A stretch of 64,000 bases of DNA from Vulcanimicrobiota bacterium (GTDB lineage: Bacteria; Vulcanimicrobiota; Xenobia; Xenobiales; JADMJV01), in contig JBFWNU010000001.1 of the NCBI GenBank assembly GCA_050250895.1, forward strand, positions 2,278,210 through 2,342,209. The letters are read 5' to 3'. Shown here piece by piece: positions 235 to 39,710 of the stretch. The notes under the pieces are model-generated. The model saw only the letters and a program-made list of their open reading frames with translations, ran no database searches and was not told the DNA's origin. Each line of letters starts with the position of its first letter. Position 1 is the first letter of the stretch. The position numbers and the translations under genes are program-made.

Positions 235-1086
235 GTGGTCGACCTGGAGCTTCTCGAAATCTATACCGTGGCGAACCCTCTGAGTATCTGTCTGGCCTTT
301 GTGTTTTGCTCGTTGGCTGGCAGCTTTCTCAATGTGGTGATCTATCGCACGCCTCTGGAACGGTCGGTCGTGTTGCCCCCGTCGGCCTGTACCACCTGCG
401 GGGTTCCTCTGCGCTGGTGGCAGAACATCCCTATCCTGTCCTACTTGAGCCTGGGGGGGCGCTGCCATTTCTGCTCGAGCAGTTACTCGTCACGATACGC
501 CTGGCTCGAATTGTTCGTCGCCAGTGTAGGAGCCGGGATGTTCTGGTTCTATGGCGGGCTGGCCTGGCAGTTTATCTACCACTTCACCTTCTTTTGTCTT
601 TGTACCGCCGTTTTCTTTACCGATCTCGATCACTGGATCATTCCTGACGAGGTCAACCTGTTCGGCGTTTTGTTCGGGTGTTCTCTGGCCTATTTCATGC
701 CGGTTCGGGGAGATATGGAATTGTTGGCCTATCCGCTGGCTCCCGGAGTTCAGAATTTGGTCTCGTCCATCCTTGGCGTGGGCTGTGGATTGGCTTTCTT
801 TTGGGCCATTCAGGTGATCGGGCTTATGTTGGCCAAGCAAGAGGCCATGGGAGGAGGGGATGTCAAATTCGCCGCTCTCATCGGGGCCTTTCTGGGCTGG
901 CGCATGGGATTCGTGGCCTTCATGGGCAGCTTTTTGCTGGGCGCGTTTGTGGCCGTGCCGATGATGCTATTCGGGGGGCGCGGCAAAGATCCGATCCCCT
1001 TTGGCACCTTCATGGCCCTGTCGGCAGTGCCCTGTGCCCTGTGGGGGGACCGACTGCTTGCCGAGTGGCTGATGACCTACTACTAA
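235..1086 (+). CDS. pilD: Prepilin peptidase / N-methyltransferase (peptidase A24)
   Basis: N-terminal 4-Cys zinc motif (CTTCG…CHFC), polytopic membrane protein, A24 family-like signature; 283 aa. Confidence 0.85.
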   Translation: MVDLELLEIYTVANPLSICLAFVFCSLAGSFLNVVIYRTPLERSVVLPPSACTTCGVPLRWWQNIPILSYLSLGGRCHFCSSSYSSRYAWLELFVASVGAGMFWFYGGLAWQFIYHFTFFCLCTAVFFTDLDHWIIPDEVNLFGVLFGCSLAYFMPVRGDMELLAYPLAPGVQNLVSSILGVGCGLAFFWAIQVIGLMLAKQEAMGGGDVKFAALIGAFLGWRMGFVAFMGSFLLGAFVAVPMMLFGGRGKDPIPFGTFMALSAVPCALWGDRLLAEWLMTYY

Positions 1087-1516
1087 ACCCCCAAAGGGTG
1101 GCGCCGTCGACCGTCCTCCAGCCGACCCTTTTTTAGGCTCGTTTTGTCTTGACGTGAGATGCATTCCATGGTTTGCTAGGTGCTACCGATTGCCGCCGGT
1201 CGATTCGACATGGGGGGGCGAAAGCAAAGTTCGCAAGTGAGGAGGGTACAACCCCGTCCTGGCCAAAGTCGGTCCTGCGTGACCGCTCTGTTCGATTCCC
1301 TGTCCGGGTCTGGTTGTCTCGGGCGGGCTGAGAACCCTGTGTTTAAGGGCTTTCCTGGTTGTCTTCCTTAAAGAGGAGTTTGCGGTAAGCCATCGAAAAC
1401 ACGTTGTTGGTTGAGAACTTTTTAATTTTTTTCGCCGAGAAATGAAAGTGTGTCATTGGCACTCTGGTAAATTTGGCGGAGATTTAATCTCCCGAACGGG
1501 AGGGGGTGAATGGTAG

Positions 1517-2617
1517 ATGGATTTTTTTAGGAAGCTATTCTCTAAGGCGCCTGAGTTGGGCGCTATCGACATTGGCAGCAACATGATCAAGGTTGCCATC
1601 GTCAACGAGAAGAAGGGCGCCCCACCCGAGCTTTATCGCTATGCCCAATGCGCCACGCCGCCAATGACCATCAAAGATGGCTCCATTGTCGACGCTCAGC
1701 TGCTGGGTGAAACGATAGCAGGCCTGCTCGCTTCGAGCGACATCCAGGTCGGCAAGTTGGTGTCGGCTGTGGCCGGTCAGCAGGTCGTGATTCGTCCGAT
1801 CCAGATGACCAAGATGAAGCAGTCCGAGGTCAACCAGGCTATCAAGTTCGAGGCCGAGCGCTATCTACCATACTCGGTGACTGATGCCTCGGTGTCGGGA
1901 ATGATTATCAACGAGCATGTCGACGAGCGCAGTATGGAAGTGCTGTTGATCGCCGTACCCAACGAGATCGTCGCCAACGCGCGCGAGGTGGTCAAGATGG
2001 CCGAAGTCGAGCCCGGCCCCATCGATCTCGAACCCCTGGCCCTGTTCCGTTCACTCAAGCATTGTGTGAGCGACGAGCAGATGGCGGGGACGCTGGCCTT
2101 GATTAATCTCGGCGCGAGCTTCAGTAGTATCAATATTTTCCGCCAACGGGTCCTGCGCCATAACCGGACGATTTCCATCGCGGGCAACTCGTTCACCAAG
2201 GCGATCGGACAATCTCTCAATCTTTCTTTCGAAGAAGCCGAAAAGATCAAGAAAGAGAAGGGTGTCATCCGGGTCGAGAACAACGCCGACCCGGTGCCGC
2301 CCACGACGATGAGAATTTTCAATCTCATCGTTCCCGTCTTGACCGAGCTGGTGACCGAAATCCAGCGCTCGTTCGACTACTACCGTTCGCGCTACAAGGA
2401 CGGAGCGGTCGACCTGGTGATTCTCTCGGGCGGCACCGCAAAATTCAAGAATATTGACCAGTTTCTGGCCAACGAACTCGGCGTCAAAGCCGAGATCGCC
2501 AATCCCTTTCGAGGGATTAATGCCCAGAAAGTGCCTGGTCTCTCTCAGGCCGACCTGGCTGATATCGCGCCCAATGCTATGGTTGCTCTGGGCTTGGCCC
2601 TGAGGGAGGCTCAGTGA
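1517..2617 (+). CDS. pilM: Type IV pilus assembly ATPase-fold protein PilM
   Basis: Actin-like fold motifs (IDIGSNMIKVA…, LSGGTAKF), 366 aa; GGGAGGGGG RBS 8 nt upstream of the ATG. Confidence 0.85.
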   Translation: MDFFRKLFSKAPELGAIDIGSNMIKVAIVNEKKGAPPELYRYAQCATPPMTIKDGSIVDAQLLGETIAGLLASSDIQVGKLVSAVAGQQVVIRPIQMTKMKQSEVNQAIKFEAERYLPYSVTDASVSGMIINEHVDERSMEVLLIAVPNEIVANAREVVKMAEVEPGPIDLEPLALFRSLKHCVSDEQMAGTLALINLGASFSSINIFRQRVLRHNRTISIAGNSFTKAIGQSLNLSFEEAEKIKKEKGVIRVENNADPVPPTTMRIFNLIVPVLTELVTEIQRSFDYYRSRYKDGAVDLVILSGGTAKFKNIDQFLANELGVKAEIANPFRGINAQKVPGLSQADLADIAPNAMVALGLALREAQ

Positions 2618-2936
2618 AGAAGAACCTGCAAATTCGTGGTGAGACCACCTATAAAGAAGGTGGGGAGGAATTCACCCGTTTCACTAGAAAGTGCAGTCTT
2701 CTTGATCTTGAATTAGATTGTCGAATTGGAAATACCGAAGGAATCGCTCTGCAGCGAGGGCAGGTCCGGATCGGAGGGTGGTGATGGTGACATCGTGATA
2801 AACACTCTCCGGGGCGGATGTCTCTCAGGCTTAGGGTCTGGCAGTCTCTCCTCGAAGTTATCGCGGTTCGACCGCGAGACGCAATTCATTATCGGTATTA
2901 GACTACGAAAATTGACTAGGGAGGTGGGTTTGACTT

Positions 2937-5006
2937 ATGCCATCGGTGACGCATAGAGGCATAAAGTTTCTGCTAGCGTGTATGCTTGCCGTTGGTTTCG
3001 CCTGTTCCACCGTCTCCGCTGCAAGCGCCGCCACTGTTACGGACGTCAAAGTCAGTAACGGTGCCAACGGCACGCTGCAAGTGGAAGTCGGTGCCAACGG
3101 CGCGGTGAAACACCGTGCCAAAACACTGTCGAAACCGCAGAAACTAATCGTAGTTGATGTGTTCCCTGCCGTGCTCGGCCAGAACGTGAGAACGTCCTTT
3201 GACGTGAACCAGGGTCTGGTGGAGAAGGTTCGGGTAAAACAATACAACGACAACACTGTAAGAGTGTATGTCGACGTTATCACCCTTCCTGAGTTCAAGG
3301 TGATGACCGCAGACGGTTCGAAAGGCCTGACCTTGGCCGTGTCGACCGCTCAGATGGCCGAGGGGAAAGCGACGAGCGCCCCGTCCACGAGCGAAGAAGA
3401 CACCGAGGTTGCTACTCAACCGACTGCGCCGGCAACCCAACCCCGGGTTGCTCAGTCTTCCCCTCGTCCTCGGACGGCTCCCCGACAGGTGTCGAACAAC
3501 GGCATCAACATGTCGGGAGCCGGTGACGCTCCGGTGTCGGCTTTGCGGCCGCGTCGGGCACCCAAAAAGGCCCCCGCTCCGAAGCAGCGTCTGGTGACGC
3601 TCGACTTCGTGAACGCTGACCTGGTCTACGTGATCAAGGTGTTGGCCAAAGAGATGAACCGTAACGTTTTCGTCGGCCCTACGGTCGACGGCTCCGTGAC
3701 GGTGACTCTCAAGAACGTCCCTGTCGAGGGCGCTCTGGCTCTGATCCTGAAAATGCAGGAGAATGAGTACGACTATAAGGTGTTGAAAAACACCATTGTA
3801 GTGGCCGCCCCCGAGAAGCTGTCGGAGATTCCCGACGACATCCTCGATGACTCCAAGGTCAAAGAGCCGCTTCTGCCGGAATTTACGATTCGTCAGGAGA
3901 TCCTGCTCGAGAAAGCTCCCGCTGCTAAGGTGATGGAGTTCCTCGAAGGGCAGTATGATCGGGTGAAGTTCACTGCTCACCCGACCATGAACGGGTTCTA
4001 TGTCGTGGGATCCCGGGAAGACGTTCTCCAGATCAAGCGCGAAGTGCCGAATCTGGACCGTGTTCCCGAGCCTCCGCCGCCACCGCTCCGTGAGTTCCTC
4101 ACGGTGAAGTATGGCGACATCAACGAGGTTCGTACCCTTCTTTCGACGCTGGTTCCCGACGTTCAGTACAATGTGGACACTCGTCTGAACCTGATCATCG
4201 CCGAGGGTTCCCCGGGCGCTATCGACCAGGTGAAAGAGCTGTTGGCTGAAATCGACCGTCCCCTCGACCAGGTCATGATCGACGTCAAAGTCGTCGACAT
4301 CACCGAGAACGGCCGTAAACAGCTGGGCGTTTCCTGGGGTGCTTCCGGCGCTCCGGGTACCGTCATCACTACCTTCACTGAAGGTGTTACCGGCCAGCGC
4401 CTCGAGCGCAACAACAACGCAGGTGGTGCGATTTTGAACCCGGGTGCTCTCACCCAGATTCAGAGTTTCGCCGCCATCGGGATCTCCGAGTTCGCTCGCA
4501 GTCCGCTCATCCTGGAAGCCTCGATTCAGTTCCTGGTGACCCAGGGCGAAGCCAAGGTTCTTGCCTCGCCTCGCGTGGCAACCCGTTCGGGCCGCGACGC
4601 TCTCATCCACATCGGCGACAAGTTCCCGATCGTCTACTTCGACCCCCGCGCTGGACAGTTCCAGGTGCAGTATGTTGACATCGGCATCAAGCTGGATGTC
4701 AAACCCGAGATCAAGGCCGACGGCTTCGTGCTGGTCGACCTGCGTCCCGAGGTCAGCACTCTGGTCGAGTTGGTCAACAACCAGTATCCTCGCACCGCGG
4801 TTCGTACCGTCAACACGTCAATGCGTGTTAAAGATGGTGATACTATCATCATCGGCGGTCTGATCCAGGAGCAGGATCTACAGTCGGTCACCAAAGTGCC
4901 GCTGTTGGGCGACCTGCCGATTATCGGCACGTTGTTCCGTCAGACTTCGGTCACCAAGACCCGCAACGAGGTCGTGATGATGCTCACTCCTAGCGTGATG
5001 CGCTAG
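2937..5006 (+). CDS. pilQ: Type IV pilus secretin PilQ with N-terminal AMIN domain and a Pro/Ala-rich linker
   Basis: Signal peptide, AMIN-like N-domain, and secretin C-domain motifs (LVTQGEAKVLASPRVATRSG…, VPLLGDLPIIGTLF…MMLTP); 689 aa. Confidence 0.9.
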   Translation: MPSVTHRGIKFLLACMLAVGFACSTVSAASAATVTDVKVSNGANGTLQVEVGANGAVKHRAKTLSKPQKLIVVDVFPAVLGQNVRTSFDVNQGLVEKVRVKQYNDNTVRVYVDVITLPEFKVMTADGSKGLTLAVSTAQMAEGKATSAPSTSEEDTEVATQPTAPATQPRVAQSSPRPRTAPRQVSNNGINMSGAGDAPVSALRPRRAPKKAPAPKQRLVTLDFVNADLVYVIKVLAKEMNRNVFVGPTVDGSVTVTLKNVPVEGALALILKMQENEYDYKVLKNTIVVAAPEKLSEIPDDILDDSKVKEPLLPEFTIRQEILLEKAPAAKVMEFLEGQYDRVKFTAHPTMNGFYVVGSREDVLQIKREVPNLDRVPEPPPPPLREFLTVKYGDINEVRTLLSTLVPDVQYNVDTRLNLIIAEGSPGAIDQVKELLAEIDRPLDQVMIDVKVVDITENGRKQLGVSWGASGAPGTVITTFTEGVTGQRLERNNNAGGAILNPGALTQIQSFAAIGISEFARSPLILEASIQFLVTQGEAKVLASPRVATRSGRDALIHIGDKFPIVYFDPRAGQFQVQYVDIGIKLDVKPEIKADGFVLVDLRPEVSTLVELVNNQYPRTAVRTVNTSMRVKDGDTIIIGGLIQEQDLQSVTKVPLLGDLPIIGTLFRQTSVTKTRNEVVMMLTPSVMR

Positions 5007-5026
5007 TAGAACATCGTCGCCAACGA

Positions 5027-5066
5027 AGAGCGCCGTCCCCAGGGGCGGCGCTCTTTCTTTGTTTCC
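5027..5066 (+). terminator. Probable rho-independent terminator after pilQ
   Basis: GC-rich imperfect hairpin gagcgccgtcccc-a-ggggcggcgctc followed by TTTCTTTGTTT. Confidence 0.45.
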
Positions 5067-5404
5067 GGGATGGCCTTCTCGGGGCAGGCTAGAATGCTCT
5101 TCATTATACCATCCGCTGGTTTGGCTTGCAGGATCGCTTGACTTGGGAACCGAACCAAGTTCAACGACTTGAAGTTTAGTTCACGCGCGCCTGGAAAGCG
5201 ACCGTGAGTAGAACGGGCCACGACAATAGAGATAGGTCCGTGTGGCTGCTCTAGAATCAGCGTCGCGAACTGAAGAGCTACACAGTACGGGTTGGTACAA
5301 CTTGATCTCATTCGAAGGTAGGGCCTTTCACGGTCCAGCTATCCTAGTATTGTCCGACAACATTGTTCAGGGCTCCGTTATGTCCCATGGAAGGAGGTCC
5401 CACA

Positions 5405-8400
5405 ATGGCTGACGCTGTTGCTCTTCTTTCCGATGCCCAACGTTCGTACACCACCGGTGACTGGGACCAGGCGATCGACGCCTACAAGAAGGCCCTCGAG
5501 GCCGACCCGAACAATCGCGAAGCTTGCGAAAAGATGGCCAAGGTCTACGCCATTCGCGGGATGTACAAGTCGGTCATCTCCACCTATTATCAGCTGATTG
5601 ACATTCTCGAGTCGAGTGACGACCTCAATGGTGCTCTCGAGGTGGCCGATTGGGTGATGGCGCTCAAGCCCGACTCGGCTGAGGCCAGGGCCAAGCGCAT
5701 CCTGGTCTTCCAGAAGAAGGGCGACACCGAAGAGGTGGTTCGCCAGTCGCGCGGCCTGGCCAGGTTGTACATCGAACTCGGCGAGGGCGACAAATCGATC
5801 CAGCTGTTGCAGCAAGCCCAGAAGGCGGACCCTGATAATCTCGACATTGGGCTCGAACTGGCCGAGATGTATGTCAGCCATGGCCATATTCAGGACGGTG
5901 CAAATCAGTACCGCAAGGTAGCCAACGCTTTCCAGGACCAGGGCAACCTCGAGCGGGCCGCCGAGGCCTATAAGCGCATGAAGGTGATCGTGTCCGACGA
6001 CCCCGGCGTGCTGCTCACTCTGGGGCGGCTGTATGTCGACCTGCGCCGCTACAACGAGGCTGAGCAAGAGTTCCGCTCCATCTTAAGACACAATCTCAGC
6101 CACGAAGAGGCTTTGCTTGAACTGGGCCGCGTCTGTCAGCTAAAGGGTCAGTTCCGCGACGCCATTCTTGCCTTCAACAAGATCCTTTCCATCAACCCCG
6201 ACGTGGTCATGGCCAAAGAGAAGTTGGGTGAGCTCTACAAAGCTCAGGGCCTGGTGCCGGAGGCCATCAAGAATTTCCTGGCCGCGGCTCAGGCTTATCT
6301 CGAGATCGACGAGAAGGACAAAGCCATCCATCTCTATCAGATCGTTCTTGGTCTCGACACCAGCAACGCCACGGCTTGTCGCGAGTTGACCAACCTGGGT
6401 GCGCCACTCATCGGTATCGAACCCGAGCCAGAGCCCGAACCCGAGCCGGTGCCCGAACCGGTGGCGCAAGCCGAGCCAGAACCAGAGTTCGAGCCCGAAC
6501 CAGAGTTCGAGCCGGAGCCCGAGCCTGAAGTGGCGGTTATGCAACCTCCGCCGGCGCCCGCTCCGGCTGCTGGCGGCGGTCGTGCTAACGGTTTCGCCTC
6601 TTCCGAGCCAGCTATGGCTGGACCGCCGCGCGCACCCCGGGCAGGCTTGACTCCTCCTGATTCTCCCCGACCGGGGCTGACCACTCCCGAGTCGCCCCGA
6701 CCGGGCCTGACTGCTCCGGACGCGGCCGATTCGCCGAAGCGCGGACTGGTTCGTCGAGGCGGCGATGCTAGTGGCGGCTTGCGCCCAGGTCTGCGTGGCC
6801 CGGGCGGCCCCGGAGGTCCTGGTGGCAAACCTACGCTTGGACTGCGCGACCACTCCGGCCCTTTGCGCAAGGGACTCGAGCGCGAGGGTGGCGTGGGCGA
6901 CAAGCCTATGCTGATGCGCAAGCCCATGCTGGAGCGACGCTCGCCGGCTGACGAGAAGCCGACCTTGAGTCGGAACGAAGCCCCCCGGCCAACACCCGAG
7001 CCGATCAGCGCCCGCGAACCCGAACCTACCGAGTTCGAGCCGTTGGAGCCGCTGGAGCCGCTGGAGCCTTTGGAAGCGGTCGAACCGCCGGCCATCTCAC
7101 CCCCACCCGCCCTGCCTCCGCTCGAGCCCGAGCCTGAGCCCGAGCCAGAATTCGACGAGCCGATGGCCGAGGTCGAGCACGCTGAAGAAGCCGACTTCGA
7201 TGGCGAAGAAGACGAGAGTGGCGAAGAACGCGGTGGTCTCGGACAGAGCTTGCTCGGTTCACGCCAGGAGCGGCCATCTCTGCGAGGTGGCGGACTGCTA
7301 GGCGCCGGGCCGCGGCTGGGCATCAAGCCAGGTCCCTCCCTGGGAAAACCCAAGTTGGGTGGTCTCGGCGGTTTGCGCTCGACCAAACCCGAAGGGCGCC
7401 CTGGCGGTCTTTTGCGTCCCGGTCAGCCGACCGGTCGGATCGAGGATGACGAGCAAGGTGCCGAAGAATCGGCCTCTTTCGACAACCCCGAAGAAGTAAA
7501 CGGCCTCTTCTCGCAAATGCGTGACAGGGCGAAGCCTGCCGAGGCTCCTACGCCCAGTTCCGAATTGATGTCTCCCGAGGGAGGGCTTTTCGACGGCGAG
7601 AGATCTGAATCGGACAGTCTCTTTGGCGAGCCCGCTCCCGCCGGCGGACTGTTTGATTCACCGGCCCCCTCTCCGGCCCAGGATCTATTTGGCGAGCCAG
7701 AACCCGCTGGCGGGGGTCTCTTCGATTCACCCGCGCAGACCGACAAAGACGACCTGTTCGGCTCGTCCCCGGCTTCTTCTGGCGGCTTGTTCGACTCGCC
7801 GGCTGAGCCCGCAGGCGGGCTTTTCGATACCAGCCCAGCCTCTCGAGCCGCTGACAGCTTGTTCGGCGAGCCTCCGGCCCCCTCGGCCCCATCCAACGAC
7901 CTGTTCAGTGAGCCGGCGCCCGCGGCGACTGCCTCGAATGAAGACCTGTTCTCGTCGCCTCCGGCCTCCGAGCCGGCCGGCCTTTTCGAATCACCCGAAC
8001 CGGCTCCGGCCGATTCGCTCTTTAGCTCGGCTCCCCGCAATGAAGAGCCGCCGAGTCTTTTCGACTCTCGCCCGGTCGACGAGTCCTCGTTGGAACCCCC
8101 CTCGGCCGAGCCGGTAGCTCAAGACGGTTCCGATCCGTTCGGTTCCAGCCACGACCTCTTCGATCAACCGCCGCCAGCCGACGCCGACGGACTGTTCGGT
8201 GGCCAGGCCACCCAATCAGACCTCTTTGACCAGCCAGCGCCGGTTGCCGACGACCTTTTCTCGGCTCCCGCAGAGGCACCGGCGGCGGATCTGTTCTCGT
8301 CCGCCCCGGCCCCAGCCAGCGACCTGTTCAGCCAGCCGGCGGCTCCGGTCGAAGAGCCTGCGGCGCCCTCAAATGACCCGTTCCATCAGTCGGCCGCTCC

Positions 8401-11400
8401 AGCCAGCGACCTGTTCAGCCAGCCCGCAGCCCCGGCCGGGGACCTGTTCAGCCAGCCCGCGGCTCCGGCCGGCGACCTGTTCAGCCAGCCCGCCGCTCCG
8501 GCCGCCGACCTGTTCAGCCAGCCCGCGGCTCCGGCCGGCGACCTGTTCAGCCAGCCCGCCGCTCCCTCGAGCGACCCTTTCTCTCAGCCCGCCGCCAGCG
8601 ATGACCCGTTCAGTCCGGCACCTGCGTCGGCTGAGTCCGCCGAAGCGCCGGCCAGCGACCTGTTCAGTCAGAGCCCGGCCCCGGCTGGAGATCTGTTCAG
8701 TCAGACCCCTGCGCCGGCGGCCGGTGACCTCTTCGGGCAGTCTTCGGCTCCGGCGGCCGACCTGTTCAGCCAGACCCCGGCAGGTGACCTGTTCAGCCAG
8801 GCACCGGCCAACGAGCCTTTCAGCCCGGCCCCCGAGCCCGACCCGGCTCCGGCCGCAGACCTGTTCAGCCAGGCCCCGGCCGGCGACCTGTTTTCGGCTG
8901 CTCCCGTCGAGGCGCCCTCCTCGGGTCTGTTCGAACAGCCCGCCGGCGGTGACCTGTTCTCGGCTGCGCCTGCGCCGGCCCCAGTCGAGCAACCGGTGGC
9001 CAGCGAGCCCGCCCCCGCCGGGGGATTGTTTGACGAGCCTGCCCCCGAGGCCCGGTCCGAGCTGTTCAGCCCTGCTCCCGAGACCGCTCCGGCCAGCGAG
9101 GCGGCGGAAGAACTCTTCTCGCCGACCACGCCCGAAGCCCCGGCCGAAGCCGCTGCGGGCGGTTTGTTCGACGAGCCCGCCCCGGCTGCGGGTGGCTTGT
9201 TCGACCCTGCTCCCGCCGCTGGACTGTTCAGTGAGGCGACCGGTTCGTCCCAAGATAAGAAGGCGGCCGTGTCGGCGGCCTTCGAGCGCTTCCGCAAAGA
9301 CAAGCCCGGCGGCGGCTCGCAGGAGCCGGTGCCCGGAGAGGAAGAGCCCAGGCTCTCGAGCGAGATCGTGCTGCCCCCGCGTCCGCAGGACTCGCCAGAC
9401 TTCCTGCAGGCTCTTGAAGCGACCCTGCCGCGCCCGGCCTCGGCCGAGCCCGAGCCCGAGGCTGCTCCACCCAGCGTAGAGTTGGATCTCGAGCCCAGCC
9501 ATGAGTCAGCCGAGGTTCCGGTTGCTCCTCCTGCTCACGAGAGTTTCGAGATCGAAGAGCCGGTGGCCACGGCCGAGCCTGAGGTGGTGGTGCCCGAGGT
9601 GGTGCCCGAACCCGTGCCCGAGCCCGAACCCGAGCCCGAAGTGCTGGGACGACCCACCGTCTCGATGTCGATCGAGGAAGAGTCGCCAGACGAACATGTC
9701 TCCCAGGCCGACGACGTTCGCAACTCCCTGGGTGACTCTGATGTGGCGACCTCGATTAGCGTCTATCGTAAGGCTGTGGAAGAATCTCCCGACAACTTGG
9801 TGTTGCGCACCCGGCTCGCCGACATCCACATGCAGTATGGGCTGCTTGAGGACGCCGTCGTCCAGTATCGCCAGATCATCAAGCGAAACCCCGCTTCCAT
9901 CAGCCTTCGCCACCGCCTGATTCAAGCTCACCTTTGGAACGAGAGTCACGATCAGGCGGCTGCGGCCTTGATGGAGTTGGCCGAACTGCACTCCGAGCAG
10001 GGTAACCACCAGGACGCTCTCGACGCGCTCCAGACGGTGCTCAGTCTCGACCCTCATCACTTCGAGGCTCGCAAGCGTCTGGTCGACCGGTTCACGGCTC
10101 TCGATGAGGCCAAACTGGCCGCCCACCACTTGCGTCAATTGGCCGAGGCGGCCCTCACGAAGGGCAACGTGGAAGAAGCCATCAGCGCCTTCAAGCAGTT
10201 GATGGAGATCTCCGACGATCCCAGTTTCCAGGACCGGCTGGCCCAGGTCTACGAGAGCCAGGGAGACAACCAGCAGGCGTTGCTCCACTATCGTCAACTG
10301 GTGGCGCGCTACCAGAGCGAAGAGAAGTGGGAAGAGGCAGCTGCCGCCACCGAGCGTATCGCCGAGCTCGACCCCGAAGCGGTCGAGACCCGCACCGGTC
10401 TCATCGACCTCTACCAAAAGCTGGGTCTGACCGACAAGGTGATCGAGCAACAATTCGAGCTGGCTCGCTATCACCAGGTGCGCGACGAGTTACCTGAGGC
10501 GATTGCGCTCTACGAGCGAGTCGTGGCGGCGCGACCGCAGAAATACGATGCCCGCCGCCTACTGGTCGACGCCTATCTCGATTCCGGCAAGGTGCCGGCG
10601 GCGCTGCAGCAGTCCGAGGCGCTCACGGAGCACTATCTGACCACCAAAGACCACACCACCGCCATCGAACTTTACAGGCGATTGGTGGAGGCCGACTCCG
10701 AGAACGTCGAGCTACGCGAACGCCTGATCAAGTTCTACAACATGGCCGAAGACTCGACCAACGCCATGGAGCAGCTGCTGATCCTGGCTGGTCTGCACCG
10801 CGCCAACGAGCGCTACTCGCAGGCGGTGGATTGTTATCGCAGGGCGCTCGAACTTGACGAGTCGCGAGTTGACTTGCATTACGAACTGGCTCAGATCCAT
10901 GTCGACCACCTCGACGACCTCGAGTCGGCGATGCGGCAGTTCCGCCGGGTCTACGAGCTGGCCCCCACCAACCTCGAGGCCATGGAACGCTACATTCGCA
11001 TGCTGCTCGACGCCGGCAGCGCGGGCGAGGCGGGCGAGGTGCTCAATAAACTGGTCGAATCCAGTGACTCGGGCGACCAGGTTCGCGAAGCGCTTCTCTC
11101 CGAACTCAAAGCCAAGATCGAGCGCGACCCCGCCGACATGTCGGCCCGTTTCAACTATGGTGAGCTGTGCTTCCACCTGGGCGAACTTGACCTGGGTATC
11201 GAGCAGTTCCAGCAGACGCGCCGTGACCCGGCTTTCGAACTCAAGTCGTACAACATGTTAGGTCTATGCTTTGCCGAGAAGACCGGCTTCAATATGCTGG
11301 ACCTGGCCATCAAGCAGTTCCGCAAAGGTCTCGAGACCCGCGGTCACTCCGACCAGGATTATCTCGAACTCAAATACAACCTGGCGATGCTTCAGTATCG

Positions 11401-11533
11401 CAACGGAAGGCTCCAGGAGTCGCTTCAGGAGCTGAAGGATTGCTACGCCGTAGACATCGCCTTTAAGGACGTGCGCGAATGGGTGCGTCGAATCGAGGCG
11501 GAGATTGCGGGAGGGCCCCGCTTCCCGCGATAA
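5405..11533 (+). CDS. Giant TPR-repeat protein (2042 aa) with a ~1000-aa disordered PEPE / ΦLF-repeat core
   Basis: GGAAGGAGG RBS before ATG 5405 (the track ORF starts at 5363). N-terminal TPR of ~330 aa. Central low-complexity region (~nt 6410-9700) holds (EP)n tracts and about 45 DLFS/GLFD repeats. C-terminal TPR solenoid of ~600 aa. The C-terminal module is shared with the next gene. Confidence 0.85.
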   Translation: MADAVALLSDAQRSYTTGDWDQAIDAYKKALEADPNNREACEKMAKVYAIRGMYKSVISTYYQLIDILESSDDLNGALEVADWVMALKPDSAEARAKRILVFQKKGDTEEVVRQSRGLARLYIELGEGDKSIQLLQQAQKADPDNLDIGLELAEMYVSHGHIQDGANQYRKVANAFQDQGNLERAAEAYKRMKVIVSDDPGVLLTLGRLYVDLRRYNEAEQEFRSILRHNLSHEEALLELGRVCQLKGQFRDAILAFNKILSINPDVVMAKEKLGELYKAQGLVPEAIKNFLAAAQAYLEIDEKDKAIHLYQIVLGLDTSNATACRELTNLGAPLIGIEPEPEPEPEPVPEPVAQAEPEPEFEPEPEFEPEPEPEVAVMQPPPAPAPAAGGGRANGFASSEPAMAGPPRAPRAGLTPPDSPRPGLTTPESPRPGLTAPDAADSPKRGLVRRGGDASGGLRPGLRGPGGPGGPGGKPTLGLRDHSGPLRKGLEREGGVGDKPMLMRKPMLERRSPADEKPTLSRNEAPRPTPEPISAREPEPTEFEPLEPLEPLEPLEAVEPPAISPPPALPPLEPEPEPEPEFDEPMAEVEHAEEADFDGEEDESGEERGGLGQSLLGSRQERPSLRGGGLLGAGPRLGIKPGPSLGKPKLGGLGGLRSTKPEGRPGGLLRPGQPTGRIEDDEQGAEESASFDNPEEVNGLFSQMRDRAKPAEAPTPSSELMSPEGGLFDGERSESDSLFGEPAPAGGLFDSPAPSPAQDLFGEPEPAGGGLFDSPAQTDKDDLFGSSPASSGGLFDSPAEPAGGLFDTSPASRAADSLFGEPPAPSAPSNDLFSEPAPAATASNEDLFSSPPASEPAGLFESPEPAPADSLFSSAPRNEEPPSLFDSRPVDESSLEPPSAEPVAQDGSDPFGSSHDLFDQPPPADADGLFGGQATQSDLFDQPAPVADDLFSAPAEAPAADLFSSAPAPASDLFSQPAAPVEEPAAPSNDPFHQSAAPASDLFSQPAAPAGDLFSQPAAPAGDLFSQPAAPAADLFSQPAAPAGDLFSQPAAPSSDPFSQPAASDDPFSPAPASAESAEAPASDLFSQSPAPAGDLFSQTPAPAAGDLFGQSSAPAADLFSQTPAGDLFSQAPANEPFSPAPEPDPAPAADLFSQAPAGDLFSAAPVEAPSSGLFEQPAGGDLFSAAPAPAPVEQPVASEPAPAGGLFDEPAPEARSELFSPAPETAPASEAAEELFSPTTPEAPAEAAAGGLFDEPAPAAGGLFDPAPAAGLFSEATGSSQDKKAAVSAAFERFRKDKPGGGSQEPVPGEEEPRLSSEIVLPPRPQDSPDFLQALEATLPRPASAEPEPEAAPPSVELDLEPSHESAEVPVAPPAHESFEIEEPVATAEPEVVVPEVVPEPVPEPEPEPEVLGRPTVSMSIEEESPDEHVSQADDVRNSLGDSDVATSISVYRKAVEESPDNLVLRTRLADIHMQYGLLEDAVVQYRQIIKRNPASISLRHRLIQAHLWNESHDQAAAALMELAELHSEQGNHQDALDALQTVLSLDPHHFEARKRLVDRFTALDEAKLAAHHLRQLAEAALTKGNVEEAISAFKQLMEISDDPSFQDRLAQVYESQGDNQQALLHYRQLVARYQSEEKWEEAAAATERIAELDPEAVETRTGLIDLYQKLGLTDKVIEQQFELARYHQVRDELPEAIALYERVVAARPQKYDARRLLVDAYLDSGKVPAALQQSEALTEHYLTTKDHTTAIELYRRLVEADSENVELRERLIKFYNMAEDSTNAMEQLLILAGLHRANERYSQAVDCYRRALELDESRVDLHYELAQIHVDHLDDLESAMRQFRRVYELAPTNLEAMERYIRMLLDAGSAGEAGEVLNKLVESSDSGDQVREALLSELKAKIERDPADMSARFNYGELCFHLGELDLGIEQFQQTRRDPAFELKSYNMLGLCFAEKTGFNMLDLAIKQFRKGLETRGHSDQDYLELKYNLAMLQYRNGRLQESLQELKDCYAVDIAFKDVREWVRRIEAEIAGGPRFPR

Positions 11534-11624: not shown

Positions 11625-14600
11625 ATGCCTGACCAGAAGGAAGTCATCCAGCAGTGGATTCAGCACGCCAACACCCTGGCTACCCAGGGTCGGTGGGATG
11701 AAGCCCTCGCAGCTTATAACAAGGTCGTCGAGGTCGACCAGCATAATCTCGATGTGCGTCAGCACATCATTAGCATCTCCTTGAAGAAGGGTAACTACTC
11801 CGAGGTGATCCATCAGCACATGGATTGCGCCGAGATTTACCATCAGCAGGGGGATCGTGACGCTGCCATCGAGCGTTACGAAGAGATTTTGCGCCTTCAA
11901 GAAACGGTCGAAGGCCATGGCTCTAGCTTCGATGGCGGCGGAGACGCCGCCCAGGTGCACCAACTCGTAAGTCAGGTCAAGCCCGAGATCTATCACCAGA
12001 TTGGTGACTATCATCTTGAGCGCGAGAACGTTGACCTCGCTCTGCAATACCTGCGCAAAAGCCAGGAGCTTCAACCCGGCCGTTGGGACACACACATGGC
12101 CCTCGGTCGGGCCTACATGAAGAAGAGCATGGACAAAGAGGCTATCGGCGAGTTCCAGGAGGTGCTGCGACTGGCTCCCGATGAGTCTGCTCTGGCCTAC
12201 GAGAACCTCGGCGAGGTGTTCGTGCGCCAGGGCAGACCGCCTCACAGCACGGTGGTCTGGTTCCAGCACGCGGCCGAGTATTATCTCAAGAAGCAGAAGC
12301 TGGCCGACGCCACCCGCGCCTACGAGCGCATTCTCGAGTTTGATCCTCAGAACAAAGAGATTCTCTACAATCTGGGCGAGCTTTATGCTCAACAGGGTCT
12401 CAAGGAGCAGGCGGTGCGGACTTACCGCACCCTGGCCGAACTCTATGAGAAGGAGGGGCTGCTGGATAAAGTGATCCAGCTCTACGAGACCGTGGTTTCG
12501 TGGGACCCCGACAGTCAGTGGGCTACCGACAAGCTGATCTCTATCTACGAAGGCGTGTTGGGACGAAACTCTAACAACATCTCGGTTCGCGTTCGGCTGA
12601 TCGAACATCTCGCCGCCCAGGGCCGTCGCGGCGAACTGGGTCCCCACTACCTGGCCCTGGCCCAGGGTCATGTCGAGCGCGGCATGCTCGACGAGGCGGT
12701 CAAGGCGTCACGTCAACTACTCGAACTCGAGCCGCAAAACATTCAAGCCCGTGAGATCCTCGGAGACATCTATCTCAAGAAGGATATGCACTCCGAGGCC
12801 CTCGACATCTTCCAGCAGATCGTCAAGATCTACCGGGCCCAGGGCAACGAGCAGGCCGCCCTGCAGTTCCAACAACGATTGGTCGAGGTCTTTCCCCAAG
12901 CTCCCGAGCTACTCTATCAAGTAGCTCTCAGTCTCCGCGACAAGGGCGACCACGAGGGTGCCCTGCGCGAACTCGACCGCATCATCGCCCAGCGCCCCGA
13001 CGATATCAAGGCGTTGGCCTACAAAGCCGAGCTGCTGGGGCGGCTCAATCGTCTCGACGAGTCGATTCAGACCTATGCTCGGGTGCTCCAGATGGATCCC
13101 CAGCGCACCGACGTGCGCAAGCTGATTATCGAGCTTTTGATCAAGACCAATCGTCTCGAAGAGTCGTCGCGCCAGATCGGCGTCCTCTCTCCTGATGACC
13201 CCGACATCCCGGCCTTGCGCAGCCGCATCATCCTACTTTACATCGAGACGCGCCGCCTCGAGCAAGCCGAGCAAGAGCTTGCCTATCTCCCCGAAGAGAA
13301 CGAGCGGCGGCTGGTGTTCCGCAAGGAGCTGGTCAAGCTCTATCTCGACGCCGGCAATCTTGACAAGGCTTTCGAGGGTTTGCCTCAGATCCCGCGCTCC
13401 GACCGTGAGCGCAACAGTCTGGTGACCCGACTGCTCGAGATTCCGCTGGCCAAGGGCGACCTCGAGACAGCCGCCAAGACCATTCATCGGCTACCCGAAG
13501 ACGACCCGCTGCGACTGTCGTTTCAGCGCCGTCTGGTAGCCTCGTATGTCGAGGCCGGCCGGCTCGACGAGGCAGCGGACGAATGCCTGCGCCTGCCGGC
13601 CGACGACGAGGCTCGCTCGGGCTTCGTCAGTCGCCTGATCGGCGGTTTTCTCACCCAGGGCGAACTCGAGAAGGCTTCGCGCGAGATCTATCGCCTCTCC
13701 GAGGGTGACCCGCTGCGCAACTCGTTCATGGGCCAGCTCATCGAGGCTTATCTTTCGGCTGGCGAACTCGAACGGGCCGCCCAAGAGGTGGGCCGGCTTT
13801 CGCGCGAAGACGAGATCCGCCCCCGCTATCATCGACGCATCATTCAGGCCTATCTCAACGCCAGCAAGTTCGAAGAAGCCGAGCGCGACATCCTGGCTCT
13901 CGACGACTCCGACCCCGAGAAACGTTCCTTCCTGAGGCTGCTGATTCAGAAGTACCTGACGCTGGGCCAGCTCGATCGAGTGCGCGAAGTGGTGAATCGC
14001 ATGCCCGACGACATGGACGAGAAGAAGCAGTATCTCGACGGGTTGGTCCACAACTATCTCGACACCGGCGACCTGGCCGGTGCCCGTCATCAAATCTATC
14101 AGATGGCCGAATCCGAGGCCTCTCAGGGCAACCACAAGGAGGCCGAGCGTCTCTATCGCGAGATTCTCGCCTATCAGCCCGCCGACGCCGAGATTCGCTT
14201 GCGGTTGTCCCAAGAGATCGCGGTCCAGGGTCAGACCGAACGCGCCCGCGAGGGTATGCTGGTGCTGGCCGGTCGCTTCCACCGCGAGAACAACGTGACT
14301 TCGGCGGCCGACGTTTATAGCCGCATGCTCGAGGTCGATCCTAACGACCTCAACGCCCGTTACAAACTGGGCACTCTGTGGGCTGAGCAAGGTCAGACGG
14401 CCCAGGCCCTCGAGCAGTTTGGCGCCCTGGCCAAGGTCTATCTCGAACAGAACCTGCCCGAGGTGGCCCAGAAGGTTCTCAACAAGATACTCGAGCTCGA
14501 TCCGAAGGACATGGAGCATCGACGCCAGGCGATAAGGCTCTTGATCCGCAACTTGCGTTTCGAAGAGGCGACCGAGCACTATCGCGCCTTGATGGGCATC

Positions 14601-16001
14601 CATCTTGAACGGGGCGAAGTCGACGAGGCGCTCGAATGCGTCAAGGAGATCGTCAATCTCCAACCGCTCAACCTCGAGCTGCGCCAGTCGCTGGGCGCGA
14701 TGTTCCTGCGCGCTGGCTTCTTGGAGCAGGGTCAAAACCTGCTCGAAGAGTTGGCCCGCGACGCCGAAGACAAAAGGGACAACGAACGTCTGCTACGGGT
14801 GCTGTGGACGCTGGTTCGCTCCTTCGAAGAGAACGAGCAGTGGGAGATCTCGCTCGAATATCGCGAGCGCATCGCCGACCTGTTGCGCTCGCTTGATCAA
14901 TGGCAAGAGGCCCACGAGGAGTATCTCAAGATCATCGAGGGCTACCTCATCCACGAGCAGAAAGAGCCCAGCGAGCCCATTTTCGTCAAGGTTATCGATG
15001 GCTTCTTCCGCAATCGCGTGGTTCCCGAGGGGCTCAGCAAGCTCGACGGCCTGGAAGAGTCGCTATCTGATGCGGGGCATCACAAGATGGCGCTGCTGGT
15101 TCGCGAGCGGACGGCCTCGATCATGGAGCGACTCGACGAGTGGGATCGGGCTATCGAGATGTACGACGGCATCTCCGAGCGCTATCTCGAGTTGGGCGAA
15201 GTCGAGCTGGGTCTCGAGTTCCGCCGCCGCGCCGCCGATCAGGCTCTAAATCACGAGCGCATCGAGCAGGGTGTCGAGCATCTCTTCGTGCTGGCAGGCG
15301 CCACCGTGGAGCACAGGGGACTCGAAGAGGCTCGGCCGGTCCTCGATGAACTGCGCAAGACGGCGCAAGATGATGTCGGCTATCTCGAGCGCCTGGGTGA
15401 TGTCCTGTTCAAACACTCTCTGTTCGAAGAGGCTCGTCCCATCTACGCCGAGGTGCTCGAACGAGAGCCCGGACGCCCCGAGGCACTCTCGCGGGTAGCC
15501 ATCATCTATGCCCGCGAAGGGCGCCTGGAAGAGGCCGCCGATGTGGCCAAGCAGATCTTCTCGAAAGGTCTCGTGTCCAGGATCATCAAAGAATATAAAG
15601 AAGCTACTGGTTTCACCGAGGGCGACGCTGGTTCGCACGTGCGTCTCGGGCAGTTCTATCGACAGATGGGCTTCCTGGAGGAGGCGATTCGTGAGTTCCT
15701 GGTCGCAAGCCAGGATCCCAGCCGACTGTTGGGCGCTTACAATCATTTGGCCCAATGCTTCCGGCAGCAGGGTTATTTGGAACTCGCGGTCAAGCAGTTC
15801 CAGAAGGCGCTCGACCAGCCCGGTTATCGGGACGAAGAGTTGCTTGAGTTGCGCTTCAATCTAGCCTGCGCGCTAGAAGATATGGGGCGACATAAAGCAG
15901 CCCTGGCGGCGTTCCAGGAGTGCTACGTCATCGACATCCGCTATCGAGAAGTGGCACAAAGGATCGAGGCCCTCATGGCGAATATGCACGCAGAGGTATA
16001 G
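11625..16001 (+). CDS. Giant TPR-repeat protein (1458 aa), paralogous C-terminus to the preceding gene
   Basis: Continuous TPR-like helical repeats throughout. Its last ~100 aa align with the last ~100 aa of the 5405-11533 product (LG.CF..G…LA.KQF.K.L…ELLEL.NLA…CY..DI). Confidence 0.85.
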   Translation: MPDQKEVIQQWIQHANTLATQGRWDEALAAYNKVVEVDQHNLDVRQHIISISLKKGNYSEVIHQHMDCAEIYHQQGDRDAAIERYEEILRLQETVEGHGSSFDGGGDAAQVHQLVSQVKPEIYHQIGDYHLERENVDLALQYLRKSQELQPGRWDTHMALGRAYMKKSMDKEAIGEFQEVLRLAPDESALAYENLGEVFVRQGRPPHSTVVWFQHAAEYYLKKQKLADATRAYERILEFDPQNKEILYNLGELYAQQGLKEQAVRTYRTLAELYEKEGLLDKVIQLYETVVSWDPDSQWATDKLISIYEGVLGRNSNNISVRVRLIEHLAAQGRRGELGPHYLALAQGHVERGMLDEAVKASRQLLELEPQNIQAREILGDIYLKKDMHSEALDIFQQIVKIYRAQGNEQAALQFQQRLVEVFPQAPELLYQVALSLRDKGDHEGALRELDRIIAQRPDDIKALAYKAELLGRLNRLDESIQTYARVLQMDPQRTDVRKLIIELLIKTNRLEESSRQIGVLSPDDPDIPALRSRIILLYIETRRLEQAEQELAYLPEENERRLVFRKELVKLYLDAGNLDKAFEGLPQIPRSDRERNSLVTRLLEIPLAKGDLETAAKTIHRLPEDDPLRLSFQRRLVASYVEAGRLDEAADECLRLPADDEARSGFVSRLIGGFLTQGELEKASREIYRLSEGDPLRNSFMGQLIEAYLSAGELERAAQEVGRLSREDEIRPRYHRRIIQAYLNASKFEEAERDILALDDSDPEKRSFLRLLIQKYLTLGQLDRVREVVNRMPDDMDEKKQYLDGLVHNYLDTGDLAGARHQIYQMAESEASQGNHKEAERLYREILAYQPADAEIRLRLSQEIAVQGQTERAREGMLVLAGRFHRENNVTSAADVYSRMLEVDPNDLNARYKLGTLWAEQGQTAQALEQFGALAKVYLEQNLPEVAQKVLNKILELDPKDMEHRRQAIRLLIRNLRFEEATEHYRALMGIHLERGEVDEALECVKEIVNLQPLNLELRQSLGAMFLRAGFLEQGQNLLEELARDAEDKRDNERLLRVLWTLVRSFEENEQWEISLEYRERIADLLRSLDQWQEAHEEYLKIIEGYLIHEQKEPSEPIFVKVIDGFFRNRVVPEGLSKLDGLEESLSDAGHHKMALLVRERTASIMERLDEWDRAIEMYDGISERYLELGEVELGLEFRRRAADQALNHERIEQGVEHLFVLAGATVEHRGLEEARPVLDELRKTAQDDVGYLERLGDVLFKHSLFEEARPIYAEVLEREPGRPEALSRVAIIYAREGRLEEAADVAKQIFSKGLVSRIIKEYKEATGFTEGDAGSHVRLGQFYRQMGFLEEAIREFLVASQDPSRLLGAYNHLAQCFRQQGYLELAVKQFQKALDQPGYRDEELLELRFNLACALEDMGRHKAALAAFQECYVIDIRYREVAQRIEALMANMHAEV

Positions 16002-16015
16002 CGGGAAGGGGTTAC

Positions 16016-17461
16016 GTGAAAGTTTTGTTCACAAGCGAAGCGACGCGGGGGCTTAGACGAATCGGGCTGGCCAGTCTGATAGCCCTCACGTCCATCCAGG
16101 CTGCTTGGGCCGACGAGGGCGGCTTTATGGATGTCCTCAAGCAGCAAGAGAACAACCTTTTCCTTGGCATGATAGGCCTCGGTGTGACCCTGGTGGTCTT
16201 GATCGTGGCCGAAGTCGTTCTCTCCAAGCGCGAGAGCAGTTCTTCACTCGATATCGACCGATTGGCGGCTGCGGCTCAGCGCAAGCAGCAGAGCGCGATG
16301 GCCGCCGCCGCGCAGGCTAACCCCGGGGGAGCCTATGCTCCGCCCCCTCCGCCTCCTCCGCCGCGTCCCGGGGCCCCGCCCCCACCACCTCCGCCGCCGA
16401 GCCCTTCCGCGGCCCCATTACCGCCCCCGCCGCCGCCTCCGTCGTTTGACGAAGACGTCAATCCATTTCAAAAATTGTCCCGCCTGGCCGCCGATGACGA
16501 GATGGCTCCGGTGGGCGCGCCGCCGCCGCCCCCGCCGCCACCTCCTCCGCCGCCTATGAGTTTTCCGTCGGCCGGTCCGGCTTCCGAGGAAATGGCTCCT
16601 CCGCCGCCGCCTCCGCCCCCGCCCCAGTTTGCGCCTCAGGGCAGCGGTGAGATGCCCTCCATGGGCATGCCCACCTCGCCACTCGGAGGAGGAGGATTTA
16701 ACGCACCGCCGCCTCCACCACCTCCGCAGGGCATGCCCACGGCACCCCTCGGAGGCGGTTTCAACGCACCCCTGGGCAGTCCGACCTCTCCCCTGGGAGG
16801 TTTCAATTCGCCGATGGGCACGCCGACGACGGCGCTGGGCAACCTCGGCTCTCCCACCACCTCCCTGGGCAACCTGGGCAACATGGGGACTCCGACCACC
16901 GCCCTGGGAGGCATTCCCGGGATGGGCTCGTCGGGTCCGCCCTCGCTCGAGTCGACCAGTCCTCTGGCCGGGCCCGGCGGAGAAGCCGGGGGTGGTGGCT
17001 GGGCCGACCTGCTCCAGCGCGTCCGGGCCGGAGAACCCGAAGCAGCATCTTTTTCGGGGGGCGGGGCTACACCGCCGCCCTCAACCGAAGACGAACCTCC
17101 TCGGCAGAGTCCGTTCCTGCCCACCGGTGGCTTTAATACCGGTGGTGGTGGCGGTGGGGGGGGCTCGTCTGAAGCTTGGGAAGCCCTTTTGAAGAAGACG
17201 ACCGGGGATGACCCCGGGCGTCCCAAGAAGCCCGGAGGAGGCGACGTCGGTCGCATCCAACTGGGCTCGGGCGAAGGTTTCTCGCTACCCGGCATGGGCG
17301 GCGACAGCGGAGGCAGTCCCCTGGACTTCCTCGGTGGCGGTAGGTCCTCTGAGGAGGGTTTACCCGATGTCGTCAAAAAAGCAAGCCGGACGATCTCTTT
17401 GGACTTGAAGAAGGGAGGGGGACAAACCCCGCCTCCCCCGCTTCCCAAGACTGAGGGATAG
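16016..17461 (+). CDS. Proline-rich single-pass membrane protein with polyproline (FH1-like) tracts and WH2-like motifs
   Basis: GTG 16016 follows a GGGAAGGGG RBS (the track ORF at 15920 overlaps the upstream stop). Signal-peptide-like LASLIALTSIQAAWA|DE. TM helix LFLGMIGLGVTLVVLIVAEVVL. Four runs of 8-12 Pro. Gly/Thr/Pro-rich tail containing ADLLQRVRAG and EALLKKT. Confidence 0.7.
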   Translation: MKVLFTSEATRGLRRIGLASLIALTSIQAAWADEGGFMDVLKQQENNLFLGMIGLGVTLVVLIVAEVVLSKRESSSSLDIDRLAAAAQRKQQSAMAAAAQANPGGAYAPPPPPPPPRPGAPPPPPPPPSPSAAPLPPPPPPPSFDEDVNPFQKLSRLAADDEMAPVGAPPPPPPPPPPPPMSFPSAGPASEEMAPPPPPPPPPQFAPQGSGEMPSMGMPTSPLGGGGFNAPPPPPPPQGMPTAPLGGGFNAPLGSPTSPLGGFNSPMGTPTTALGNLGSPTTSLGNLGNMGTPTTALGGIPGMGSSGPPSLESTSPLAGPGGEAGGGGWADLLQRVRAGEPEAASFSGGGATPPPSTEDEPPRQSPFLPTGGFNTGGGGGGGGSSEAWEALLKKTTGDDPGRPKKPGGGDVGRIQLGSGEGFSLPGMGGDSGGSPLDFLGGGRSSEEGLPDVVKKASRTISLDLKKGGGQTPPPPLPKTEG

Positions 17462-17469
17462 ACTAGCTC

Positions 17470-18384
17470 ATGCCAGCAGTATTAGGAGGCGAGTTGCTTC
17501 TCCCTAAAGGGAATGCCTTAATCGAGGACATCACGCTCCCGGTCCATGATATCGAGACGATGATCACGAATCTCGAGAGTGATCATTTCACTGGCTACGT
17601 TCGTCTGGATATCAGCGGAACCGAGGGGCTGGTATTCTTCTCATCGGGAGAAGTCTTGCGGGCCATCGAGCTTCCCAGCGGAGCGGACCCCATCGTCCGG
17701 TTGCTGCCTCGCGTCATTAATCTGGCCCGGCAACGGATGGAAGTGCCCGCTTCGTCCTACGTAATGAGCCCCCAGATCATCTCGGTGCTGTCGAGCGTTT
17801 TTGCGTTTAAGCCCAAATACAAAGACTACCAAGTCAAGCGTAAAGAGATGAAGAAGGTGCTCAACAGTCTCGAGCAAGATGAGTGCTCGGGCATCCTCAA
17901 GATGGTGGGTCCCGACGGTCGAGTGTGTCTGTTGATGGACCGAGGCAATCTGGTCACCGACCGGTTCGCCACCAACTACGGAGAGGTGGTCTGTGGAGCC
18001 GAATCGGTCAGCAGCGTGCTCGACTATGTGCACAAAAACGGCTCGACCATCCAGGTTTATGCCGAGAAGGCCAACGAGATCGACAACCTGCGCCGGCGGG
18101 CTGAAGACGAACTAGAAAAGATTCGGCAGCTGATCGTCAAAGAGAAGTCGGGCATGTTCCGAGCCAGTGACGTGGTCAAAGTGGCTGAAGACATCATTCG
18201 CGACTGGGGCATCGATATCAAGCAGACCTTCATGGTCGAGATCGAAACCGGCACCGGCGAACTCTTCAACTTCAAGTGCCAGGCCGGACGCAAACTGGGC
18301 GGCTACGCCGAAGTGCATTCAAATATGCTCAAGACCATGTCAGTCAACGAAGGAGACCTCGTCAACGTTCGACCGATCGGTTGA
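17470..18384 (+). CDS. Hypothetical protein, possibly tandem DUF4388/PATAN-like domains
   Basis: 304 aa, starts 9 nt after the previous stop. Two repeated segments (HFTGYVRLDISGTEGLVFFSSGEVL / ECSGILKMVGPDGRVCLLMDRGNLV) recall DUF4388 from memory. The domain call is unverified. Confidence 0.6.
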   Translation: MPAVLGGELLLPKGNALIEDITLPVHDIETMITNLESDHFTGYVRLDISGTEGLVFFSSGEVLRAIELPSGADPIVRLLPRVINLARQRMEVPASSYVMSPQIISVLSSVFAFKPKYKDYQVKRKEMKKVLNSLEQDECSGILKMVGPDGRVCLLMDRGNLVTDRFATNYGEVVCGAESVSSVLDYVHKNGSTIQVYAEKANEIDNLRRRAEDELEKIRQLIVKEKSGMFRASDVVKVAEDIIRDWGIDIKQTFMVEIETGTGELFNFKCQAGRKLGGYAEVHSNMLKTMSVNEGDLVNVRPIG

Positions 18385-18398
18385 CGTCAACACACACC

Positions 18399-25498: not shown

Positions 25499-25672
25499 CG
25501 ATGCTCCTCGGAGTAGCCAGCCGGCGAGAATTTTTCCATAGTGAGTGAACTCATGATTTGTTGCTCCTCTCACCGTCCAGTATGAAGCCGATTTAAGACC
25601 GTAGCGTGTCGAGCTTGTGAACGGTCGATTGCTAGGATGTTTCTAAATCCTTAACGTCGAATGGGCGGGCCT

Positions 25673-39676: not shown

Positions 39677-39710
39677 GGTAATCTCTTGCAGGCTCTGCTA
39701 TAATCTGGCC

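Follow-up and report, generated by a model that had tools for sequence, protein, structure and literature searches.

The window analysed here is a 64-kb stretch of DNA (64,000 nucleotides) from a Vulcanimicrobiota bacterium. Its first 16 kb carry, all on the + strand, pilD, pilM, a 319-bp gap, pilQ, a terminator-like hairpin and two giant TPR genes. The Logan contig L001 extends the window upstream. The features of this region are as follows.

235..1086, + strand: pilD, prepilin peptidase (PF06750, 3.9e-27; PF01478, 8.8e-15)
1517..2617, + strand: pilM, cytoplasmic actin-like type IVa pilus (T4aP) protein, 366 aa (PF11104 PilM_2, 1.8e-46 over residues 17-364)
2614..2784, + strand: 56-aa ORF overlapping the pilM stop, called as a gene on L001 and L002
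2773..2787, + strand: conserved motif GGAGGGTGGTGATGG, purine-rich, about 150-190 nt 5' of pilQ
2861..2877, + strand: small hairpin TCGCGGTTCGACCGCGA upstream of pilQ, with the equivalent GCGGCTTGGCCGC in L008 and L010
2919..2928, + strand: pilQ Shine-Dalgarno sequence GGGAGGTGGG, invariant in all loci with a short pilM-pilQ gap and nearly so in relatives with a long one
2937..5006, + strand: pilQ, outer-membrane secretin, 689 aa, with AMIN, a long linker, N0/STN, N1 and the secretin domain
5025..5056, + strand: terminator-like hairpin 3' of pilQ, a 14-bp stem followed by a T run
5405..11533, + strand: gene of the first giant TPR protein, about 2040 aa, with many TPR families (start according to the L001 gene call)
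11625..16001, + strand: gene of the second giant TPR protein, 1458 aa, with TPR families and same-position orthologues in relatives

The window PilM matched the PDB structures of Myxococcus xanthus PilM (3JC8, 2e-47) and Thermus thermophilus PilM (2YCH, 8.5e-41). The PilQ domains scored 7e-43 (PF00263), 3e-12 (PF03958), 1.4e-10 (PF11741) and 6e-06 (PF07660), and PF21305 was also matched. On L001, pilD is preceded by a gene cut at the contig end, pilT (T2SSE), pilC (T2SSF), a sigma-70 family gene and a pilin gene (N_methyl). The cut gene occupies the position of pilB in relatives, and close relatives carry a full pilB (MshEN + T2SSE). The motor and platform genes of a type IVa pilus (PilB, PilT, PilC, pilin and PilD) were thus found together with PilM and PilQ, and the cluster is the canonical type IVa pilus set pilB-pilT-pilC-sigma-pilA-pilD-pilM-pilQ of a Xenobia-type Eremiobacterota genome. 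The sigma-70 family gene (L001:3059-3856; 250-265 aa, regions 2-4) also lies between pilC and the pilin gene in L008, L011, L100 and many other Xenobia-type genomes; it is missing from L006.

The original prediction had pilM adjoining pilQ, with about 320 non-coding bp between them. This held: from the pilM stop (2617) to the pilQ start (2937) there are 319 bp (2618-2936), non-coding and with zero N. The contiguous order pilMNOPQ is not present, and nothing of pilN, pilO or pilP is coded between pilM and pilQ. A scan of 1100-5500 found no terminator-like site between the two genes.

Distribution of the short junction

We compared 80 loci of species-representative genomes, together with contigs fetched by exact protein look-up. 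The junction was identical in two Logan assemblies and the NCBI genome, and a short pilM-pilQ gap of 227-324 bp was present in at least seven further independent assemblies or species (at least nine assemblies in total). The short-gap loci comprise the window, L008/L013 (PilM 88% identical), L010 (75%), and L011/L012, L016, L039, L093 and L100/L101 (61-66%). A comparison of gene order with relatives had been proposed with the original prediction; it showed that the short junction is clade-wide, and that every other Xenobia-type locus compared keeps a gap of 1.5-2.6 kb. These long gaps contain pilN (PF05137; N-terminus MTIKVDLLPTEKK), pilO and usually the gene of a PilP-like lipoprotein. The PilM proteins of the long-gap relatives are 48-66% identical to that of the window, to which the sister P0006 adds a value of 70%. 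The closest comparison is with the Xenobia/Eremiobacterota loci L014, L015, L006 and L020-L024 (PilM 57-66% identical), which have orthologous flanks (pilB, pilT, pilC, sigma, pilA, pilD and the TPR genes) and keep a 2.4 kb block of pilN, pilO and the PilP-like lipoprotein gene.

The original prediction had also kept in view a sequencing or assembly gap at this position, for instance a collapsed or mis-joined contig that dropped pilNOP. The independent assemblies rule this out for practical purposes: the same junction stands in both Logan assemblies and the NCBI genome, the gap contains no N, and short homologous junctions recur in no fewer than seven other assemblies, which come from different studies and species.

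In neighbour-joining (NJ) trees, the short-gap loci were monophyletic, with bootstrap values of 99.5% for PilM and 92.5% for PilQ, and were nested among relatives with the order pilM-pilN-pilO(-pilP-like)-pilQ. This monophyly points to a single event. The short-gap loci form one clade of Xenobia-type Eremiobacterota (Vulcanimicrobiota), the relatives being labelled Candidatus Xenobia or Eremiobacterota. Two subclades were distinguished: S1 (the window, L008, L010, P0003 and P0004), within which PilM is at least 75% identical, and S2, which holds all other short-gap loci. GC content did not separate them.

The nearest relatives of the clade (L003, L094/P0006 and L107) have the order pilM-pilN-pilO-pilQ and no lipoprotein gene. 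In more distant relatives (L014, L015, L006 and L020-L027), the product of the third long-gap gene is a lipoprotein (about 200-270 aa) that includes a long linker of low complexity. It is PilP-like by position and lipobox only; PF04351 was not matched, and one of the four proteins scanned had a weak T2SSC match (E 0.004). A PilP-like gene was found neither in the window nor in the pilN-pilO loci described below nor in the sister lineages, so that PilP (PF04351) is the member of the alignment subcomplex for which no counterpart was found there. Since the lipoprotein is missing from the lineages nearest to the short-gap clade, the PilP-like gene seems to have been lost in an ancestor shared with these sisters, before pilN and pilO moved. 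On the gene orders compared, the most parsimonious history would run from pilMNOPQ through pilMNOQ to pilM-pilQ.

The spacer and the giant TPR proteins

The spacer had no Pfam match, no Rfam match and no conserved ORF; Rfam found no RNA family in 1100-5500, and a promoter scan found no promoter-like site in the gap. Its identity to the spacer of the relative with 88%-identical PilM is only 60%. The right-hand half of the spacer aligned with the pilP/pilO-pilQ spacer of relatives that retain pilNOP, including a GGAAGGTGGTGAT-like motif and the invariant pilQ ribosome-binding site. A GGAGGAAT remnant in the spacer may be the old pilN ribosome-binding site. The match to the long-gap pilQ leader and this remnant fit a clean removal of the coding block, and from these alignments the spacer is best read as the scar of the departure of pilN and pilO, joined to the ancestral pilQ leader.

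The purine-rich motif (GGA(A/G)GGTGGTGAT) is not confined to short-gap loci: it also stands about 150-200 nt before pilQ in the pilNOP-bearing L014, L015, L020 and L022. RNAalifold paired a GGAGG near this motif with a downstream CUCC, with some compensatory changes; the region may be a weak candidate for a leader element of pilQ. The small hairpin shows a T-A to C-G compensatory change in its L008 and L010 form and was not kept in S2.

Two ORFs touch the spacer. The 76-aa ORF at 2726-2956 was rejected as a gene, as it had no Pfam family and was not conserved; the original prediction had seen no PilN-like features in it, and a search for the PilN-like N-terminal motif agreed, giving only antisense chance matches in the six frames of the window and the short-gap loci. 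The 56-aa ORF is probably not a gene, despite its annotation by gene callers. It had no Pfam match, no membrane segment and no PilN-like N-terminal motif. Its C-terminal half alone resembles a 49-aa ORF of L008; L010 and L011 lack the ORF altogether.

Could something at this locus stand in for PilN? A substitute encoded in the spacer, whether as a small protein from the 56-aa ORF or as a structured RNA, is very improbable. The gene calls speak for it, as do a fold somewhat better than that of shuffled controls (z = -2.4) and one weak conserved stem with some compensatory changes; against it, the ORF is not conserved past the closest relative, and the RNA consensus fold is weak at -5 kcal/mol, its covariation term being unfavourable. 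Moreover, the conserved pieces of the spacer also lie upstream of pilQ in relatives that have pilNOP, which fits a pilQ leader. The giant TPR proteins had been put forward in the original prediction as a different link between PilM and the secretin, and two very large genes directly after pilQ, conserved in this position across Xenobia-type genomes (also in L005, L006, L014, L015 and L100), speak for this. However, pilNOP-bearing and short-gap relatives alike have orthologues of the first TPR protein after pilQ. Those of L014 and L015, where pilN, pilO and the PilP-like gene persist, are 73% identical over the N-terminal 330 residues, and others stand after pilQ in the pilNOP-bearing L005, L006, L017-L027 and further loci; most of the pilNOP-bearing Xenobia-type loci have one. 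The presence of the TPR proteins therefore does not track the loss of pilNOP. By eye, their N-termini show no evident signal peptide or membrane segment; the proteins are thus probably cytoplasmic and could not bridge the periplasm. A replacement of PilNOP by the TPR proteins was accordingly judged to have very little chance of being correct, and the proposal is not supported. Instead, the pilQ locus has the two proteins as conserved partners throughout the class.

The centre of the first TPR gene is a G+C-rich low-complexity region (about 8-10 kb, GC 0.65-0.69) that matches the Nucleoporin_FG model. Past the TPR genes, three more genes occupy positions 15920-18755 of the window. The product of the first (513 aa) contains a membrane helix and extended poly-proline tracts, that of the second (304 aa) weakly matches DUF4388, and the third encodes a Roadblock/LC7 (MglB-like) protein. 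Judging by these domains, the trio could be a polarity or motility regulatory module tied to the pilus cluster.

The relocated pilN-pilO pair

The scaffold_75 of TARA_SAMEA2623601 (169,483 bp, S2) carries the complete cluster pilB-pilT-pilC-sigma-pilA-pilD-pilM-[227 bp]-pilQ-TPR-TPR at 63.4-84.5 kb, with pilM-[227 bp]-pilQ at about 73.4-76.8 kb. The same scaffold carries pilN (246 aa, PF05137 5.9e-09) and pilO (219 aa, PF04350 7.7e-06) at 38.9-40.3 kb, 33 kb away from pilM-pilQ on the opposite strand and immediately upstream of rpsO. The layout pilN-pilO-rpsO recurs on at least nine other contigs, drawn from ENA, Logan, NCBI and JGI (L096-L099, L102, L104, L106, L108 and L115). A second case of linkage is supported by PilM P0022 and PilO P0283, whose contigs have the same length (154,330 bp). 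The original prediction had offered as one option that PilNOP is encoded elsewhere; for PilN and PilO this is supported in S2, on the same scaffold as pilM. The result comes close to what the original prediction had named as its own refutation, pilNOP elsewhere in an otherwise canonical arrangement, but pilP is not part of the pair.

The relocated pair ends in its own terminator, a G+C-rich hairpin followed by a T-run. This terminator and a rpsO leader of about 150 nt separate it from rpsO, the gene of ribosomal protein S15 (L095:9238-11127, L098:33-1890 and others). In the short-gap clade, pilN-pilO stood directly upstream of rpsO in all loci found. The flanks of the pair showed no similarity to the old spacers. 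A PilP-HMM match near the pair was discarded, as it covers only the lipoprotein signal and a low-complexity linker.

The N-terminus of the relocated PilN (MTIKVDLLPTEKK, MTIKVDLLP) is identical to that of PilNs encoded beside pilM; we take it to be the conserved N-terminal motif by which PilN binds PilM. In the PilO tree, the relocated PilOs are sister to those of the nearest pilM-pilN-pilO-pilQ lineage. This tree mirrors the PilM tree, so the relocated PilOs appear to be vertical descendants of genes that once stood between pilM and pilQ.

From these comparisons, we propose the following history. An ancestral pilM-pilN-pilO-pilQ block would have been split in the common ancestor of one clade. 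The pilN-pilO pair would have moved to become a separate two-gene unit just upstream of rpsO, and the copy in the interior of pilM-pilQ would have been lost, leaving a spacer of 227-324 bp with the old pilQ leader and its ribosome-binding site. Judged by its homologues in Thermus, Pseudomonas and Myxococcus, the machine should operate as a standard T4aP. PilM would lie at the cytoplasmic face, held by the N-terminus of PilN (MTIKVDLLP...); PilN-PilO dimers would span the inner membrane and reach the PilQ secretin, the presumed outer-membrane channel; and PilB and PilT would drive extension and retraction via PilC. Its sole peculiarities are transcriptional, in that pilN-pilO form a separate unit, together with the lack of a recognisable PilP-like gene.

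Compared with the pilMNOPQ systems of Pseudomonas aeruginosa, M. xanthus and Neisseria, the clade has the same kind of PilM, a PilQ with AMIN, N0, N1 and secretin domains, a PilN with an N-terminal peptide of the known PilM-binding type, and a PilO. It differs in that pilN-pilO are a separate unit by rpsO and in that no pilP was recognisable. Cyanobacteria have pilMNOQ without pilP, and T. thermophilus has pilMNOWQ. The short-gap clade resembles these systems in the lack of a recognisable PilP, as do its nearest sisters L003, L094 and L107 with pilM-pilN-pilO-pilQ; however, the four genes are contiguous in cyanobacteria and T. thermophilus, whereas here the middle pair has moved. The gene order is thus a new variant of a pilus system that is itself well known, in an uncultured phylum. 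In an entire clade of uncultured Xenobia, an operon that is very stable elsewhere has been split, with pilN-pilO now before rpsO, and the clade and its sisters appear to have no PilP equivalent. The absence of pilNOP between pilM and pilQ should not be taken for their absence from the machine, and pilus detectors based on operons will under-call these genomes.

PilN and PilO in the window's own genome

HMMs were built from the PilN, PilO and PilP-like proteins of relatives and run filter-free on the six-frame translation of the whole window. The original prediction had proposed a profile search of the whole genome; this one covered the 64-kb window, and it found no PilN, PilO or PilP (best E 0.3-10), with the control loci positive under the same HMMs (PilN 5e-74, PilO 7e-78). 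A tblastn search of the window with the clade's own relocated PilN and PilO gave no match, and Pfam scans that covered most window ORFs of 150 aa or more identified no PilN, PilO or PilP. The earlier statement that pilNOP is missing was therefore correct for the locus, for the 64 kb and, within the loci examined, for a PilP-like gene, but not for S2, where pilN-pilO sit elsewhere.

On scaffold_75, 33 kb separate pilM from the pair upstream of it; the window begins only 1.5 kb upstream of its own pilM. Given relatives that share the junction and carry pilN-pilO about 33 kb away, the window most likely represents an ordinary split operon, not a pilus machine without an alignment complex. The deletion is common to S1 and S2, and the S2 pair appears to be vertically descended; the relocated copy should thus predate the split between the subclades, and the lineage of the window should have inherited pilN-pilO. 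From these relatives, we estimate a probability of about 0.8 that the relocated pair exists in the window's own genome, beyond the 64 kb.

The PilM sequence is consistent with this reading. Strong purifying selection was indicated by a dN/dS of 0.04 for the window PilM against that of L008 (88% identical); pilQ gave 0.11 against the 88%-identical relative. Of 118 positions with at least 90% conservation among 111 PilMs from outside the short-gap clade, the window PilM retains 95%, with means of 97% for the outside PilMs and 86% for S2. By both measures, the window PilM appears to behave like a PilM that binds PilN. PilM residues 250-270, the one region relaxed in the short-gap clade, were considered as a sign of PilN loss; as the relaxation is confined to the subclade shown to contain PilN, it has nothing to do with the loss.

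The competing explanation is that S1 truly lost pilN-pilO after the ancestral split, leaving a PilM that works without PilN, has an unrecognisable membrane partner or serves another role. We consider this unlikely, though clearly more probable than a substitute encoded in the spacer or by the TPR genes. In its favour, neither the 64 kb nor the 10-kb flanks of L008 and L010 contained anything PilN- or PilO-like, and no database match was tied to the window's genome or to S1 among the 109 PilN and 120/156 PilO matches listed, in searches that were insensitive. A scan of JGI metagenomes yielded extra pilN-pilO-rpsO contigs, none of them from S1. However, the insensitivity of the PilN and PilO database searches is demonstrable. 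None of the 109 matches of the PilN-alignment search came from short-gap genomes, and the relocated PilNs, which exist, were missed as well; we therefore did not count this search as a negative result. Perhaps Pro/Ala-rich low-complexity tails filled its candidate list. A true loss is further opposed by the window PilM, which is as conserved as those from outside the short-gap clade and subject to strong purifying selection, by the intact remainder of the cluster (pilB, pilT, pilC, pilA, pilD and pilQ) and by the pilN-pilO pair of the sister subclade S2. To our knowledge, PilM is tethered to the membrane via PilN in every experimentally studied T4aP system (Thermus, Pseudomonas and Myxococcus). 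If S1 truly had no PilN, PilO and PilP, its PilM and PilQ would run without the known inner-membrane alignment proteins, and the tethering of PilM and the alignment of the secretin would be done by something not yet recognised. If the window's genome proved to be without pilN and pilO, it would be a useful natural test of PilM without PilN.

Further observations concern pilus-related genes outside the cluster. In L010, whose PilM is 75% identical to that of the window, pilB, pilT, pilC, sigma and pilA are not upstream of pilD-pilM; their place is taken by TsaE, TsaB and TsaD genes and a TPR gene coding for 2358 aa. The pilus cluster is thus further fragmented within the window's own subclade. 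A second pilus-related cluster lies at 39630-42114 of the window. It consists of a 170-aa ORF and the genes of two proteins, one of 204 aa whose N-terminus carries a methylation motif (PF07963) and one of 454 aa with DUF7305; they resemble minor pilins or tip proteins. The window also carries dprA (24497-25573, - strand; PF02481 3e-65), some 20 kb downstream of the pilus genes, which hints at natural competence.
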